From NCBI GenBank assembly GCA_035764795.1, contig DASTYR010000240.1, positions 1 through 26,900 on the forward strand: a DNA stretch of 26,900 bases, in the 5' to 3' direction. The stretch comes from Solirubrobacterales bacterium (GTDB lineage Bacteria; Actinomycetota; Thermoleophilia; Solirubrobacterales; 70-9). Under the pieces are notes generated by a model that worked only from the letters and a program-made list of their open reading frames with translations, was not told where the DNA came from and did no database searches. The translations under genes were made by a program, and so were the position numbers. Shown in pieces: positions 1 through 24,431 of this stretch; position 1 is the first letter of the stretch, and each line of letters opens with the position of its first letter.

Positions 1-1480
1 TCCGCTCCCCTGGGTCAACCCCGACCGGGCGGGCCCCGTCAAACGAAGCCGCCAGAGCCGGCGCCGTCTGGTGCAGCCTGTCGAGCACAGCCGGCCAGAC
101 CCGCGTTATCTCCCCCAAGTCGAGATCGCTCTGGCCCGCGGGTCCTGTCGCGGCGGCCTCGGCTGAAGCTGGGGGGTCCGGTGCGTCGTCCTTCGACGCC
201 TCTGCCGCGGGTGGCGCCGTAGGGGGGACCTCCCCCGAGGAAGCTTTAGCTACCGGAGGGGGAGGTGGGTCCCCTGCGGCGACAGGACCCGCGGGCCCGG
301 CGATCTCGTCCCTAGTGCCAAAGCTGCCTTTCTCCAGTCGCTCGAGGCGACGCAGCAGGCCCTCGGTCGACGGGTCTAGGTCCGGCCGCGCCGCTTTCAG
401 CAAAGCGATCTCGACAGCCAGTCGCGCGTCGTCGCCCTCGCGCACGGCAGTCAACGCCGCGGCCAGCTCGTCGATCGTGCGGACGAGGTTCGCCGGCCCG
501 ATCGCGTCGGCCTGGGCGCGCAGCCGCTCGGAATCGGCGGCCGTGACGACAAAGCTGCTCGGGACCTCGCCGATCGTCTGGGTTACCAGTAGGTGACGCA
601 GGTGGGCGAGCAGGTCGCGGGCAAACTGGGCGGGATCGCGGCCGGAGCGACTTAGCTCCTCGACGGCGAGGAGGACGGCCCTCGGATTTTCGGCGACGAC
701 CGCGTCCACGGCCCCGAAGAGCAGCTCGGCGTCGGCGGCGCCCAGCACCTCGAGCACCGCCTCCAGCGTCACCGTCGAGCCGCCGAAGGCGACGAGTTGA
801 TCGAGCGTGCCGAGTGCGTCGCGGAAGCTGCCCGAGGCCGCCCGGGCGATCATCGCCACGGCCCCCTCCTCGACCTCGATCCCCTCGGCGGCGGCGACCC
901 GCTGCAGGACCTCGGCTATCTGCTCCAGCGAGGGGCGCTGGAAGTCGAAGCGCTGGCAGCGGTCGGCGATCGTCGCCATCACCTTGTGCGCCTCGGTCGT
1001 GGCTAGGACGAAGACAGTGTTCGGCGGCGGCTCCTCGAGGGTCTTCAGGAAGGCGTTCCACGCCTCTTTGGTCAGCATGTGCGCCTCGTCGAGGATGTAG
1101 ACCTTCCAGCGGCCGGCGGCCGGCGCGTAGGCGACCCGCTCGCGCAGATCGCGGACGTCGTCGACCGAGCGGTTGGAGGCGGCGTCCATCTCGATCACGT
1201 CGATCGAGGTGCCGGCGGCAATCGTCACGCACGACTCGCACTCGCCGCACGGGGTGACGGTCGGCCCACCGCGCTCGCAGTTGAGCGAGCGGGCGAGGAT
1301 CTTCGCCATCGAGGTCTTGCCGGTCCCCCGCGAGCCAACGAAGAGGTAGGCATGGTGGACCTTGCCCTGCTCGACCGCGTTGCGCAGGGTGCGGACGACA
1401 TGCTGCTGGCCGACGACCTCGTCGAAGGAGCCGGGCCGGTGGCGGCGGTAGAGGGAGGTCGAGTCGCTCGCGGACGGCAC
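1..1480 (-). CDS. dnaX: DNA polymerase III subunit gamma/tau (3' end runs off the window)
   Basis: Translated by hand from GTG at 1480: MPSASDSTSLYRRHRPGSFDEVVGQQHVVRTLRNAVEQGKVHHAYLFVGSRGTGKTSMAKILARSLNC..., with Walker A, the C-x-E-C-E-S-C zinc motif and DEAHML. The segments I checked stay open, including the stretch to the window edge. The listed 312..1613 ORF is a different frame. Confidence 0.97.
   Translation of the reverse strand, partial: MPSASDSTSLYRRHRPGSFDEVVGQQHVVRTLRNAVEQGKVHHAYLFVGSRGTGKTSMAKILARSLNCERGGPTVTPCGECESCVTIAAGTSIDVIEMDAASNRSVDDVRDLRERVAYAPAAGRWKVYILDEAHMLTKEAWNAFLKTLEEPPPNTVFVLATTEAHKVMATIADRCQRFDFQRPSLEQIAEVLQRVAAAEGIEVEEGAVAMIARAASGSFRDALGTLDQLVAFGGSTVTLEAVLEVLGAADAELLFGAVDAVVAENPRAVLLAVEELSRSGRDPAQFARDLLAHLRHLLVTQTIGEVPSSFVVTAADSERLRAQADAIGPANLVRTIDELAAALTAVREGDDARLAVEIALLKAARPDLDPSTEGLLRRLERLEKGSFGTRDEIAGPAGPVAAGDPPPPPVAKASSGEVPPTAPPAAEASKDDAPDPPASAEAAATGPAGQSDLDLGEITRVWPAVLDRLHQTAPALAASFDGARPVGVDPGER
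121..151 (+). repeat. Partial inverted copy of the element A end and flank
   Basis: CGAGATCGCTCTGGCCCGCGGGTCCTGTCGC is an imperfect inverted repeat of 279-308. Positions 128-151 match the start of the 23242 copy with one mismatch. Confidence 0.85.
207..292 (-). repeat. 86-bp palindromic intragenic element A, copy 1 (in the dnaX linker)
   Basis: Its reverse complement matches 23251-23336 at 80/86 nt. Ends are GCGGGT...ACCCGC and it folds as a long hairpin. Confidence 0.95.
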
Positions 1481-1487
1481 TGCGGCC

Positions 1488-1511
1488 AGTGTATCTGCGG
1501 CCCGATACGGT
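1488..1511. promoter_or_regulatory. Back-to-back leaderless -10 elements (TACACT for dnaX, TACGGT for the membrane protein)
   Basis: Each TAnnnT hexamer lies 7 nt from a GTG start (1480 on -, 1519 on +), and neither start has an SD. Confidence 0.6.
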
Positions 1512-1518
1512 CCCGCGC

Positions 1519-3063
1519 GTGCCGAGCCGGGCCCGCAACTGGTTGACGCCCGCCGCCTGGGTCGCCGCGGTCTCGGCGGTCCTGCTGGCGATCTTCCCGT
1601 CCGGCTTCCCCAACTACGACACGATCTACAGCCTGCTTTGGGGCCGCGAACTGGCCGATGGGCTGAGCCCCGACCGCGGCGCCGCTCTACCGCCGACCCC
1701 CCACCCCCTCGCCGAACTCTTCGGCCTGGTGACGAGCCCGTTGGGCGACGGAGCAATCGACCTGACCATGGTCGTCGCCTATGTCGCCCTGGGCCTGATC
1801 GGCTACCTCGTCTACCGGCTCGGCTCGCTCTGGTTCGACCGCCCGATCGGCGCCCTCGCGGCGCTGATCCTCCTCACCCGCGCCCCCTACCTCTCCAACG
1901 GCCTGCGCGCCTACATCGACCTCCCCTACATCGCCCTGGTCCTCGCCGCCCTCGTCATAGAGACCAAACGCCCCCGAGCCGGCTGGCCCGTCCTAGCCCT
2001 ACTCGCATTGGCCGGCCTCCTCCGCCCCGAGGCCTGGCTCTTCAGCTTCGCCTACCTCGCCTATCTGGCAATCGATCCTGAGCAGCTCCGCCTCCGTATC
2101 GAGCGCTTCCGCGAGACGAAGCGGCCGGAAGAGGGGATGGGGATACCCCTCGAACGGGCGGATACTCAAAACGCCGGCCTAATTAGGCCGGCGTTTGTCC
2201 GGGCGAGGGGTATCCCCATCCCCTCCCCCCTCGTCCTTCTCGCGTTTTCAGCCCCACTTATGTGGGCCTTGTTCGACTGGATCACGGCTGGCAGCCCCAC
2301 GTATTCCTTTACCGGGACCAGGGAGACCGTCGAGACCCTGGAGCGCCAGACCGGCCCGGTCGACCTCGTCCTCTACGGCCCCCGCCGCCTCGGCGAGGTC
2401 CTGCAGTGGCCAGGCATGGTCGGCGCCGCAGCCGGTGTCGCCCTCGGCCTCGTCTTCCTGCGGCGCCGCAGCACCGTAGGCGTCGTCGCCGCGGCGCTCG
2501 CGCTCGCCGCCTTCGCGATCCTCGCCTGCGCCGGCCTAGCGATCATCCCCCGCTACACGATGCTGGCTGCGGCGATCCTCGCCGTCTTCGCGGCGCTCGC
2601 CCTGCTCGGCTGGCGACTGCTGCCGGGCGGGCACCGCTGGCACCGGCCGTGGCAGGCCGTCGCCGCAGCGGTCGCGGTCCTCTTCGTCCTCTGGGCGCCG
2701 AACCAGTACGACCTGCTGCACCGAGTCGACGTCGACCTGACCAACCAGAGCGAGATCGAGACCGACCTCGACGATCTCGCCTCCTCCGGCGCCTTCGATC
2801 CCCTTTGCCTCCCTGTCTCCGCACCCAACCACCGCGCCGTCCCCCGCCTCGCCTGGGATCTGGACATCCGCCCAAGCCGGATCGTCAGCTCGAGCGAGCA
2901 GCGCCAACCCCGCCGCGGCTACTTCCTCGATCCCTCCGGGCCGTTCGTCGTCCACAACTTCGTCCTCGACCCCAACGACCCGGCCCGGCTCGAGACCCCG
3001 GTGCCGCCCGGCTTTCGCCGCGCCGCGGCGAACGAGTCCTGGGTGCTCTACCGGCGCTGCTGA
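1519..3063 (+). CDS. Multi-pass membrane protein, GT-C fold glycosyltransferase-like
   Basis: Many TM segments, an early NYD motif in the first loop, and 'LAGLLRPEAW' and 'PRY' motifs typical of GT-C-like proteins. Start moved to GTG 1519 on the basis of the -10 position. Confidence 0.7.
   Translation: MPSRARNWLTPAAWVAAVSAVLLAIFPSGFPNYDTIYSLLWGRELADGLSPDRGAALPPTPHPLAELFGLVTSPLGDGAIDLTMVVAYVALGLIGYLVYRLGSLWFDRPIGALAALILLTRAPYLSNGLRAYIDLPYIALVLAALVIETKRPRAGWPVLALLALAGLLRPEAWLFSFAYLAYLAIDPEQLRLRIERFRETKRPEEGMGIPLERADTQNAGLIRPAFVRARGIPIPSPLVLLAFSAPLMWALFDWITAGSPTYSFTGTRETVETLERQTGPVDLVLYGPRRLGEVLQWPGMVGAAAGVALGLVFLRRRSTVGVVAAALALAAFAILACAGLAIIPRYTMLAAAILAVFAALALLGWRLLPGGHRWHRPWQAVAAAVAVLFVLWAPNQYDLLHRVDVDLTNQSEIETDLDDLASSGAFDPLCLPVSAPNHRAVPRLAWDLDIRPSRIVSSSEQRQPRRGYFLDPSGPFVVHNFVLDPNDPARLETPVPPGFRRAAANESWVLYRRC
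2131..2225. repeat. Palindromic intragenic element B, in frame in the membrane protein
   Basis: Perfect 22-bp inverted arms at 2131-2152 and 2204-2225, plus a perfect 28-bp central palindrome at 2169-2196. Confidence 0.92.
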
Positions 3064-5632: not shown

Positions 5633-5908
5633 AAGTGGACCGTGCGCCCCGCCTTCGAAGCGAGGTCACCGGGCGTGTCCGTCGCGTTTGGCTCGAGCCG
5701 GGCTCACCTGCGGCACCCGCGGCTTCCGCTTAAGGCTGCTTCCTTCCGGACCTGACCTGGTTCACGTGCCTACGTCGCGCAGGACCCAACCGTCAACGCC
5801 GCCCGCGGCGCACTGACCCCGACGGCCAGCCCCTCGGAACGGGATTCGGCCCCGCTAGAGCGGATTGCGGGTTACAGGGCACCGCTGATTCCCCGCCTAG
5901 CACGGTCC
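5632..5908 (-). ncRNA. ffs: Large (Alu-domain, Bacillus-type) signal recognition particle RNA
   Basis: Minus strand starts GGACCGTGCTAGGCGGGGAATCAGCGGTGCCCTGTAACCCGCAATCCGCT, closely resembling B. subtilis scRNA. It contains the helix-8 core GAACCAGGTCAGGTCCGGAAGGAAGCAGC, has a terminal helix GGACCGTGC/GCACGGTCC, and a TAGGAT -10 upstream. Confidence 0.95.
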
Positions 5909-7271: not shown

Positions 7272-7343
7272 GGGCGCGTAGCTCAGTGGGAGAGCGCTCG
7301 CCTCACACGCGAGAGGTCGCTGGTTCGAACCCAGCCGCGCCCA
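7272..7343 (+). tRNA. tRNA-Val(CAC), CCA not encoded
   Basis: Acceptor stem GGGCGCG/CGCGCCC, anticodon arm CTCGC-CTCACAC-GCGAG, T-loop TTCGAAC. Confidence 0.97.
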
Positions 7344-22275: not shown

Positions 22276-23223
22276 ATGCCCCTGCCCCTTTCGCCGCCGC
22301 TCAAGCCACAGCTGGCGCTGACCCGCAAAGCGCTGCCGCGCGGCGACGAGTGGGCCTACGAGCAGAAGCTCGACGGCTTCCGCGCCATCGTCTTCGTCGA
22401 CGGCAGCGACTCCTACATCCAGTCACGGGGCGGCAAACCGCTCTCGCGCTACTTCCCGGAGCTGAGCTTCAGTCCCGGCCGCTACGTGCTCGACGGCGAG
22501 CTGGTGATCTGCGACAACGAGGGAAACGTGGAGTTCGACGCGCTGCAGAGTCGCCTCCACCCGGCCGAGTCTCGGATCAAGCTCCTGGCCGAGCAGATTC
22601 CCGCCGGGCTGCGCGTCTTCGACCTGCTCGCCGAGGACGACGAGGCGCTGCTGGAGACGCCGTTCGGCGAGCGGCGGGCGCGCTTGGAAGGACTGGCGCC
22701 GAGCCTGGGACTCGAGCTGACCGAGCTGAGCGACGACCCGGAGCGAGCCGAGCAGTGGCTGCGGACGACCGAGGGGGCGATGGCAAAGCAGCTCGACGCC
22801 CCCTACGAGCCGGGCAAGCGACGCGGGATGGCGAAGATCAAGCGCGAGCGGACGATCGACTGCGTCGTGATGGGGTGGCGGCCCGGCAAAGAGGAGGGCA
22901 CCGTCGGTTCGTTGATCCTCGGCCTCTACGACGGCGGCGAGCTGCGATCGGTCGGCCACATCTCCGGCTTCAGGGCCCAGATGAAACGGGACCTGCGCCA
23001 GCTGCTGGCACCGCTGGAGACGGGTGAGCGGGGCAGCGCCGAGCCGAGCCGTTGGGCGGCCGAGCGCGACCTCGAGTGGGTTGCGTTGCGGCCCGAGCTG
23101 GTGATCGAGGTCGGCTATGACCACGCCGCCGCGGGGCGGATCCGGCACGGGGCGCGGTTTCACCGGTTCAGGGACGACAAGGCGCCAGGCGAGTGCCGGT
23201 TCGAGGATTTGGACGAAGGCTAG
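22276..23223 (+). CDS. ligC: ATP-dependent DNA ligase, LigC-like
   Basis: [11 protein letters not shown] (KxDG), VLDGEL, VFDLL, EGAMAK and an OB domain with '[27 protein letters not shown]'. Confidence 0.85.
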
Positions 23224-24330
23224 AAGAGGGTTGACTGAGCGCTCTGGCCAGCGGGTCCTGTCGCCGCAGGGGACCCACCGCCCCTTCCGGTAGCTAAAGC
23301 TTCCTCAGAGGCGGTTCCCCCTACGGCGCCACCCGCTGGAGAGTTGTCTTTCCGGGACAGCTTCGGTCCGGCCGCTCTTCGCCTAGATGCGCCGGAGCGG
23401 CCCCAGCCGCGGACCACTTTCGTCACCTGACCTCTCTCTTGGGCTGGCAAGTACGCTCGACCGCCTGCATAAAGCTGTTCGTAGCGGGGGATCAGGTCGG
23501 GGCGTTTGGCTTCGAGCCAGGCGAAAAAGACGTCGCGGACCTCGTCGCGGAGATGGAGGGCGACGCCGCCTAGGAAGGTTGCACCGGCCTCGCGAGCTCG
23601 GTCGACGAGGGGTTGGACCTGGTCGGGATGGTCGTTGATGCCAGGCATCAGCGGGGCAATCAGGACGCCGGAGTCGATGCCGCGGCGGCGTAGCTCGGCG
23701 ACGGCGTCGAGGCGGGCCGCGGGGCTCGGGGTGTGCGGCTCGGTCTGTCGCCAGACCTTCTCATCGAGGGTCGGGATCGAGAGGTTGACCGAGACGGGAA
23801 GTCGCTTCGCCATCCGCTCGTAGATCTCGATGTCGCGCAAGAGCAGCGGCGACTTGGTGAGGACGGAGACCGGCGTCGCCGCAGCCTCCAGCGCGGCCAG
23901 AATCTCCGGCATCATCCTGTAGCGGTTCTCGACCCACTGGTAGGGGTCGGTATTCGTCCCCAGCGCCACCAGATCCCGCTCCCAGCTCGGTCGCCCCAGC
24001 TCCACCCGCAGCAGCTCCGGCACGTTCACCTTCACCACGATCTCGCGCTCGAAGTCGCGCCCAGCGTTCAGGTCAAGGTAGGTGTGAGTGCGGCGGGCGA
24101 AGCAGTATCGGTAATCGACAGGCGTGGGTGCAACCGCGGAAGGGATTGATCGTCCAGTTGAACCCGTATCGCCCGCCGGGCACCCGATTGAGGGCCGACT
24201 TAGCCCTTATCTCGTGAAACCGGATACCGAGTGCCTCGGGCGCATCGAAAGTTCGGACAATCGCTTCCTCGGCCAGACCGAACAGCCTGCCTTCGCCCTC
24301 CTTGTCCATGCGTTGTTCGTCCCAGCGCAT
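23220..24330 (-). pseudogene. Rv2578c-family (SPL-like) radical SAM gene, frameshifted inside CxxxCxxC
   Basis: MRWDEQ...KSALNRVP...INPFRGCTHAC is in one frame and RYCFARRTHTYLD...ALGTNTDPYQ is in the +1 frame. There are 7 extra nt at 24111-24117. Confidence 0.85.
23251..23336 (+). repeat. 86-bp palindromic intragenic element A, copy 2 (radical SAM C-terminal tail)
   Basis: 80/86 identical to the reverse complement of 207-292. Confidence 0.95.
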
Positions 24331-24331
24331 A

Positions 24332-24345
24332 CGAACACATGTTCG
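24332..24345. promoter_or_regulatory. LexA (SOS) box
   Basis: CGAACACATGTTCG matches the Gram-positive/actinobacterial CGAAC-N4-GTTCG consensus. It lies 1 nt upstream of the radical SAM start codon. Confidence 0.9.
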
Positions 24346-24431
24346 CATAGAATGTATCCGTGGTCAATGCCCCGCCAAAGCCCCTCCTTCAGGTCCAGCG
24401 TCAAGCAGTGGCCTGGAGAAAGGAGGTGCCG

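Follow-up and report, generated by a model that had tools for sequence, protein, structure and literature searches.

A dispersed hairpin repeat carried in frame by protein-coding genes of Solirubrobacterales

Why do two unrelated genes on one bacterial contig, dnaX (DNA polymerase III tau/gamma) and a radical SAM (Rv2578c-like) gene, each contain nearly the same long hairpin without loss of the reading frame? We addressed this question for a stretch of 26,900 nucleotides from a Solirubrobacterales bacterium (GenBank assembly GCA_035764795.1, contig DASTYR010000240.1; hereafter, at its full length, the window). In the source metagenome-assembled genome (MAG; 1.81 Mb, 348 contigs, 69% GC, 77% complete) the window is contig C240, and the public records nearest to it are MAGs of uncultured soil Solirubrobacterales. 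Comparison of the two copies with each other and with those elsewhere in this MAG and in its relatives makes it probable, in our view, that the hairpin forms the core of a palindromic repeat, dispersed and non-autonomous, mostly intragenic and in frame, whose fold is maintained for its spread or copy-correction.

Two copies of one hairpin in the window

A repeat finder returned an inverted pair at 195-297 and 23246-23348, with arms of 103 nt that are 89% complementary. When the cores at 207-292 (+) and 23251-23336 (-) were aligned in the same orientation, they proved identical at 80 of 86 positions, bearing out the original prediction, made from the sequence of the window, of a near-identical 86-bp hairpin pair. 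The strand reading GCGGGTGG...GACAGGACCCGC is defined here as the sense strand of the element. Copy A, ~105-111 nt as a whole element (195..305, + strand), consists of an outer stem, a basal module and an apical hairpin; its conserved 86-nt core (207..292, +) runs from GCGGGTGGCG to CGACAGGACCCGC and matches the end-motif pattern. It lies in the DnaX linker and encodes the peptide AGPAGPVAAGDPPPPPVAKASSGEVPPTAPPAAEA. The dnaX gene (2..1483, - strand; open reading frame (ORF) 2..1756) runs off the 5' end of the window. Copy B (23238..23348, - strand; core 23251-23336) lies in the variable C-terminal tail of the radical SAM ORF (23220..24038, - strand, from the ORF list) and encodes the peptide SPAGGAVGGTASEEALATGRGGGSPAATGPAGQ. 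The orientations turned out to be the reverse of those first claimed, sense in dnaX and antisense in the radical SAM gene: the GCGGGTGG...GACAGGACCCGC strand of copy A is opposite to dnaX, and that of copy B is the same strand as the radical SAM gene. Copy A is thus antisense and copy B sense to its host gene, and therefore their two peptides differ.

Each copy folds into one long hairpin. The sense strand of copy A has a fold energy of -77 kcal/mol (z -5.35) and that of copy B -70.7 kcal/mol (z -5.76), with 0 of 200 shuffles as stable in either case, and the opposite strand of both copies is ~10 kcal/mol less stable than the sense strand. With core positions numbered from 207, four of the six differences between the copies form two compensatory pairs, 25/57 (T-A vs G-C) and 30/52 (C-G vs T-A). 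These are the two pairs that had been predicted; their numbers, given as 30/62 and 35/57, were shifted by +5. Position 28 is C in one copy and T in the other opposite G54, so that pairing is retained as a wobble (C-G to U.G), and the difference at position 21 concerns a bulge base. The pair flanking the core on the outside also covaries as claimed, C-G in one copy and A-T in the other. All six core differences leave the fold intact.

Both host reading frames had been predicted to stay open, and the dnaX and radical SAM ORFs do continue through their inserts. Orthologues of dnaX were found in 38 of 41 genomes of the genus, at 73-90% identity, and an alignment of 30 species places the DnaX C-terminal domain in frame after the inserts. 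Radical SAM orthologues were found in 30 of the 41 genomes. All 29 of 29 orthologues terminate in ...LF*, the window ORF returns to ...LF* past copy B, and three orthologues bear a TGPAGQ footprint. The regained ...LF ending and the TGPAGQ footprints identify copy B as a true in-frame insertion in the variable tail.

The radical SAM gene itself is distributed over two frames, an N-terminal ORF at 24073..24348 (-) and the main ORF at 23220..24038 (-); the region of the Cys motif reads GCTHAC and then goes out of frame (window 24038-24348).

A remnant of a second element lies in dnaX at 124..154 (-), where the 3' terminal arm alone remains. Positions 82-111 of the element query align to window 154..124 at 90% (blastn), and the remnant encodes ...ATGPAGQ directly ahead of the conserved DnaX C-terminal domain.

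Copy number, anatomy and pairing

The window pair belongs to a much larger family. Searches of this MAG by blastn and with a profile found 21 copies at E<1e-4 plus weaker ones, ~21-28 in all rather than just two. Of 24 genus genomes, 19 matched the main family, at numbers reaching 20 or more per genome. The figure of 19 is to be read in the light that 'negative' genomes may hold other subfamilies (as G009 does at DnaX site 2), so that presence/absence profiling is unsuitable. Relatives carry 20-45 copies per genome. The 12-mer GACAGGACCCGC occurs 20-30 times per genome in three genomes (two closed, one of two contigs), and its reversed control 0-1 times. Origin of the two copies as a local pair, by gene conversion or by misassembly was rejected, copies being numerous, spread over many contigs and present also in complete long-read genomes.

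To look more widely we used pairs of end motifs 55-85 nt apart, which were present in 72 of 301 genomes of the order, representing 32 of 81 genera, with controls near zero; among 165 genomes from other families of the class, none carried such a pair. The element is restricted to the order Solirubrobacterales. In other genera its interior sequence is very different, and each interior type is present as several near-identical copies per genome.

The family was also encountered in environmental sequence. Over window 201-300, the summed depth of contigs from soil runs X1, X5, X6 and X17 was 130-550 across the element and ~0-5 in the adjacent dnaX linker, in metatranscriptome and metagenome contigs alike. 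The flanks of these element-bearing contigs are numerous and unrelated, and soil communities at large hold the family in abundance. Contigs from public RNA runs, which derive from relatives and leave the source organism itself uncovered, showed no form in which the element is skipped.

All subfamilies have a basal module in common, which consists of an 8-bp stem (CCGCGGGT/ACCCGCGG), an internal loop and a second stem. The internal loop is asymmetric, 2 by 5, with GG opposite ACAGG. The apical hairpin differs in sequence and length between subfamilies and is paired in all of them, and most copies have an additional outer stem of ~12 nt. Conservation in 28 main-family copies extends ~13 nt leftward and ~12 nt rightward of the core; these two flanks pair with each other, and information content outside them is zero. 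Soil contigs with the element part from the window sequence at ~195 and 292-302. Because conservation ends at about -13 and +12 of the core, in agreement with the divergence of the soil contigs, we take the unit to be ~105-111 nt. CCCGCGGG, the outermost 8-mer, reads the same on both strands, and the spacing between its two occurrences in the main family is 84 nt, that is, 28 codons. A GTAG before the G-rich stem is found in the main family only and is not retained in other subfamilies. Pairing of end motifs in this genome revealed further copies with cores of 74, 80, 82, 94 and 129-130 nt. A scan of the whole window against Rfam 15 at a permissive E<=1 found no family for the element.

A subfamily of 136-140 nt has the same ends (L234, G014:C1:980850-982950; L250, G005:C2:40800-42900). 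Its interior contains a second, inverted terminal-like motif (GAACAGGACGCC vs CGACAGGACCCGC), as if elements were nested, and its two strands are about equally stable, in contrast to the main family. Two of its copies lie in frame in lhr, and it is also found at DnaX site 2 of four species. At L176, L262 and L264 in relatives, the 3' end of the element is partially duplicated in tandem and in frame, with GACAGGACCCGC repeats 40-50 nt apart.

Pairing was assessed on 98 distinct ungapped 86-nt copies and 32 core pairs. Cells were paired in 96.2% of cases vs 87.5% (maximum 88.4%) with partners shuffled, and double-change cells numbered 237 vs 56 +/- 6 in shuffles. Compensatory variants were shared by at least two copies at 13 of the 32 pairs; pair 12/72, for example, is C-G in 48 copies, T-A in 22 and G-C in 21. 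Sliding the partner column by 1-3 positions reduced pairing to 43-51% vs 88% observed (all 43 pairs, flanks included). The covariation expected from the two window copies is thus upheld across the family.

The fold also distinguishes the two strands. On the sense strand, G.T wobbles outnumber A.C mismatches whichever way the copy lies: the ratio is 53:2 where it is sense to its host gene and 147:6 where it is antisense. The A.C variants are singletons and the G.T variants have multiplied, with several different pairs in agreement, and for 90 of 90 main-family copies the more stable fold is that of the sense strand. The favoured strand is therefore the element's own and not that of the host mRNA, which argues against a role at the mRNA level and against peptide selection.

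Insertion sites and their turnover

Sampling three genomes by end motif alone placed 48 of 58 copies (83%) in an ORF context, vs 92% for random 86-nt segments; the element thus hardly avoids genes. Most copies in this genome are spanned by long ORFs with coding-like flanks. One phase is used per orientation, reading PAGGAVGG...ATGPAG one way and PAGPVAAGDPPPP...PPAAEA the other, and the two orientations relative to host genes are about equally frequent. Of 48 coding copies, 38 have a unit length divisible by 3, vs 3 of 10 non-coding ones (p=0.004). A main-family copy adds 84 nt, or 28 codons, specifying a Pro/Gly/Ala-rich peptide in linkers, loops and tails of housekeeping proteins, and these insert peptides are presumably translated as part of the host proteins. 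According to Pfam, by which host proteins were named, inserts fall between or after domains: in a loop of a GT87 glycosyltransferase, between the DEAD and Helicase_C domains of the Lhr helicase, between the lipoyl and E3-binding domains of the E2 acyltransferase, in the C-terminal tails of ribosomal protein S5 and NusA, and in the N-terminal extension of ribosomal protein S9. Paralogous membrane glycosyltransferase-like genes carry copies at a homologous loop in opposite orientations (L282, G306:C1:697000-699550; contigs C80 and C114 of this MAG).

In the alignment of DnaX from 30 species, two sites are used. Site 1, directly after domain III, holds the main family in ~20 of the 30 species; the other species have a 75-nt subfamily in another phase, a third subfamily, or in some cases a footprint or an empty site, and orientation is always the same. 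Site 2, just before the C-terminal domain, holds a full copy in the opposite (sense) orientation in six species, the 140-nt subfamily in four, and remnants (DDPPAGG...TGPAGQ) in most others, including the one at 124-154 of this window. The state of site 1 has changed at least 11 times on the 30-species tree, which was built from DnaX without the linker. The dnaX insertion is old.

Other sites showed the same diversity. The GT87 loop is element-free in ~15 species, holds a sense copy in two, an antisense copy in six and other subfamilies in five, and has end remnants in two. The Lhr loop spans the same states; one species retains CCCGCGGG and outer-stem bases alone, equivalent to a deletion between the two terminal palindromes. 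Orthologue alignment supplied the empty sites sought, in the GT87 loop and, as empty or footprint forms, in the Lhr loop and DnaX site 1.

Copies within this genome are nearly identical. Cluster I comprises the cores in dnaX, the E2 gene, the S5 gene and contig C244, which are 0-1 nt apart; the core of copy A is identical to that of the E2 gene (C55) and 1 nt from that of the S5 gene (C165). Cluster II comprises seven copies 0-2 nt apart, including copy B, which is 1 nt from those on C80 and C94. Clusters I and II are separated by the same six differences as copies A and B. Orthologous copies in two other species are 3-7 nt apart. Old sites with young-looking copies indicate concerted evolution, for which conversion via the shared ends and repeated cycles of excision and re-insertion are both possible routes.

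Explanations, candidate movers and known systems

We propose that the element is selfish or near-neutral DNA that would survive where a floppy insert is tolerated. Its fold would be maintained because the element depends, for its spread or copy-correction, on the hairpin form of one particular strand; this strand would probably be single-stranded DNA (ssDNA), bound at the basal module by a putative protein. Either re-insertion and excision or gene conversion that uses the shared ends may homogenise copies and switch the states of sites. A bolder version, which we offer tentatively and judge rather unlikely, would make the basal module the recognition site of a putative enzyme, other than a Y1 transposase, TnpB or a reverse transcriptase, that acts on one folded strand and inserts, excises, inverts or exchanges hairpin 'cassettes' at fixed CCCGCGGG sites in essential genes. 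If true, this would be a new structure-guided mobile-element system that operates within coding sequence and preserves the frame.

Several results weigh against a repeat whose fold serves its spread or copy-correction, beginning with the search for a mover. The Y1/RAYT transposase (PF01797), which had been named among the candidates to look for, had no match in any of 41 genus genomes, of which 22 have a completeness of at least 90%, and control genomes were matched; TnpB (PF07282) was found in 0 of 5 genomes. IS110 transposases (PF01548) were rejected as the mover, being absent from G048, which has 23 copies of the element, and most abundant in G044, which has no main family. Reverse transcriptases (PF00078) are absent from G014 and G005 (20 copies each), and DUF559 nucleases are present everywhere and, in G014, never within ~20 kb of a copy; both were likewise rejected. 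No longer element or full-length insertion sequence (IS) with the same ends, as would be expected for a MITE derived from a DDE insertion sequence, was found in this 77%-complete MAG. Convincing end pairs, with motifs 74-143 nt apart, are small elements only, and in wider pairs the 5' motif is no commoner than its control (1184 vs 1138); inverted pairs 0.7-1.5 kb apart in relatives enclose host genes only (nuoC/D, ftsZ-parA, an MMPL transporter, paralogous glycosyltransferases). Movers that act on lagging-strand ssDNA usually show a replication-strand bias, and here there is none, the sense strand being the leading strand in 37 of 70 copies. Among 28 copies we saw no conserved direct repeat beyond the conserved flanks that would represent a target-site duplication; CCCGCGGG being self-complementary, a duplication of it is indistinguishable from an inverted repeat, and variants of the kind CCAGCGGG...CCCGCTGG have the behaviour of inverted repeats. 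What the wobble and covariation figures count is cells and not independent events, as copies share ancestry, and translation of the inserts is read from open frames alone. Finally, no insertion or excision event was directly observed, filled and empty sites occurring in species too diverged for clean junctions.

Some of these results would fit a distinctly unlikely alternative, in which the inserts are old and immobile relics of an ancient burst, homogenised or swapped by ordinary recombination via their ~20-25-nt ends and trimmed by hairpin slippage deletions, with no dedicated enzyme. The lack of a transposase candidate, the occupation of the same sites throughout the genus, the footprints and partial 3'-end duplications (consistent with slippage) and the near-identity of cores within one genome all accord with it. 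However, across 32 genera, interiors are specific to a genus or species, and each is found nearly unchanged in several copies at many loci. Such genus-specific multi-copy interiors point to repeated local bursts. Moreover, close relatives have traceless empty sites, and conversion alone leaves unexplained why G.T variants have multiplied and A.C variants are singletons. The hairpin might instead serve the host as a signal in mRNA or DNA (pausing, stability, termination or recombination) and be kept locus by locus. It is intact in essential genes across species and occurs in contigs of soil RNA libraries, and the dnaX copy lies at the domain III/linker boundary, where the shorter gamma product of E. 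coli is made. We nevertheless find such a role improbable: both orientations are about equally common, even at one site; wobbles follow the element strand also in antisense copies, whose mRNAs therefore have A.C mismatches; many orthologues without the element retain the gene; and reading the sequence upstream of the dnaX copy showed no slippery heptamer.

Selection for a flexible linker peptide, with palindromy of the DNA incidental, would account for Pro/Gly/Ala-rich peptides in linkers, loops and tails. It is very improbable, since equivalent sites carry unrelated peptides according to the orientation of the element, subfamilies specify yet other peptides with the same nucleotide ends and pairing, ~17% of copies lie outside ORFs, and stem changes are compensatory rather than synonymous. 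The original suggestion that selection acts on structure and not on the peptide gains support accordingly, the stem being kept throughout. Least credible of all is a REPIN/RAYT or IS200/IS605-derived (PATE) element moved as a folded single strand by a Y1 HUH transposase. The long hairpin with its asymmetric conserved base, the strand-specific fold and the GTAG before the G-rich stem of the main family recall such elements, but the two protein families are missing from the genomes searched, GTAG is lost in other subfamilies, strand bias is lacking and copies are mainly intragenic.

Among known systems, the resemblance is closest to the Rickettsia palindromic elements (RPEs), and the parallel drawn in the original prediction holds for behaviour, that is, for dispersal and in-frame insertion with the host frame kept. 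In the accounts of Ogata et al. (2000) given in PMC10969869 and PMC2229807, RPEs are lineage-specific dispersed repeats of ~100-150 bp that can form a long stem-loop; in-frame fusion to unrelated conserved protein genes is seen for many copies, 19 of 44 copies lie in ORFs, and no transposase or clear target duplication is known, as far as these accounts go. The element described here is likewise a dispersed stem-loop repeat of ~100 nt found in frame in DnaX, radical SAM, GT87, Lhr, E2, S5, S9 and NusA. It differs in its host, a high-GC, free-living soil order of actinobacteria rather than a reduced, AT-rich, intracellular alpha-proteobacterium, and in the share of copies in ORFs, ~80% against the RPE fraction in those accounts. 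Compared with what they relate, it also stands apart in a hairpin kept by compensatory changes, with a basal module conserved order-wide and an apex free to vary, and in the alternation of orientations and subfamilies at one site among copies that are near-identical within a genome. We therefore regard it as a new family of the RPE kind, likened by behaviour only; sequence homology to RPEs is unlikely because base composition differs. In keeping with the prediction that the lineage lacked a description, we came across no publication describing such elements in Solirubrobacterales or Thermoleophilia.

REPIN/RAYT systems (Bertels and Rainey, 2011; PMC3733652) also have imperfect hairpins of ~100 nt in tens of near-identical copies per genome, with conserved ends and a fold that seems to matter on one strand. 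Their repetitive extragenic palindromes (REPs) are tagged GTAG/CGTC (PMC3733652), whereas no such tag extends across the subfamilies here, copies are mostly intragenic, and none of the 41 genomes encodes a Y1/RAYT protein. By the defining test for REPIN/RAYT systems and for IS200/IS605 derivatives, the element is neither. ERIC/IRU of enterobacteria and the 107-bp Correia/NEMIS elements are small palindromic repeats that have terminal inverted repeats and contain ORFs, and some of their copies are fused to genes (PMC2229807). Unlike the present element, which is mostly coding and in which neither TA ends nor duplications were seen, they are AT-rich and mainly intergenic, with TA ends and target duplications. 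The architecture also recalls integron attC sites. These have short conserved terminal stems, asymmetric unpaired bases and a variable paired centre, and work as a folded strand; the conserved basal stem with asymmetric unpaired bases, the variable paired apex and the one favoured strand are their counterparts here. In contrast, attC sites lie in cassette arrays beside an integron integrase and not within genes, and their end sequences differ.

To our knowledge, most documented cases of translated selfish palindromic DNA in essential genes come from Rickettsia, where relaxed selection in a reduced intracellular genome could account for it. Here, soil bacteria that are free-living and rich in GC show the same behaviour at larger scale, with dozens of copies per genome and host proteins that include DnaX, ribosomal proteins, NusA, Lhr, E2 and membrane enzymes. 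Such elements can regularly supply linker and loop sequence to proteins, which is relevant to the annotation and alignment of proteins from Solirubrobacterales MAGs. The combination of a conserved base, a variable paired apex and strand-specific wobble also provides an unusually clean natural experiment on how such elements are copied, a question that RPEs pose too.

Identical multi-copy reverse-transcriptase ORFs of 463 aa, probably belonging to group II introns, were noted in G288 and G048, and multi-copy IS110-type transposases in G044 and G014. Some genomes of the genus therefore carry active conventional mobile elements.

The window contains a second, unrelated palindromic repeat at 2131-2225, with 27-nt arms that are 93% complementary, inside a membrane-protein ORF (1489..3063, +). 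Its end motifs differ from those of the hairpin element, and on other contigs of this genome blastn found at least 12 more copies or fragments of it. Elsewhere in the window, the Rfam scan returned a bacterial large SRP RNA (5640-5905, - strand, 160 bits), a tRNA gene (7272-7343, + strand) and weak chance matches.

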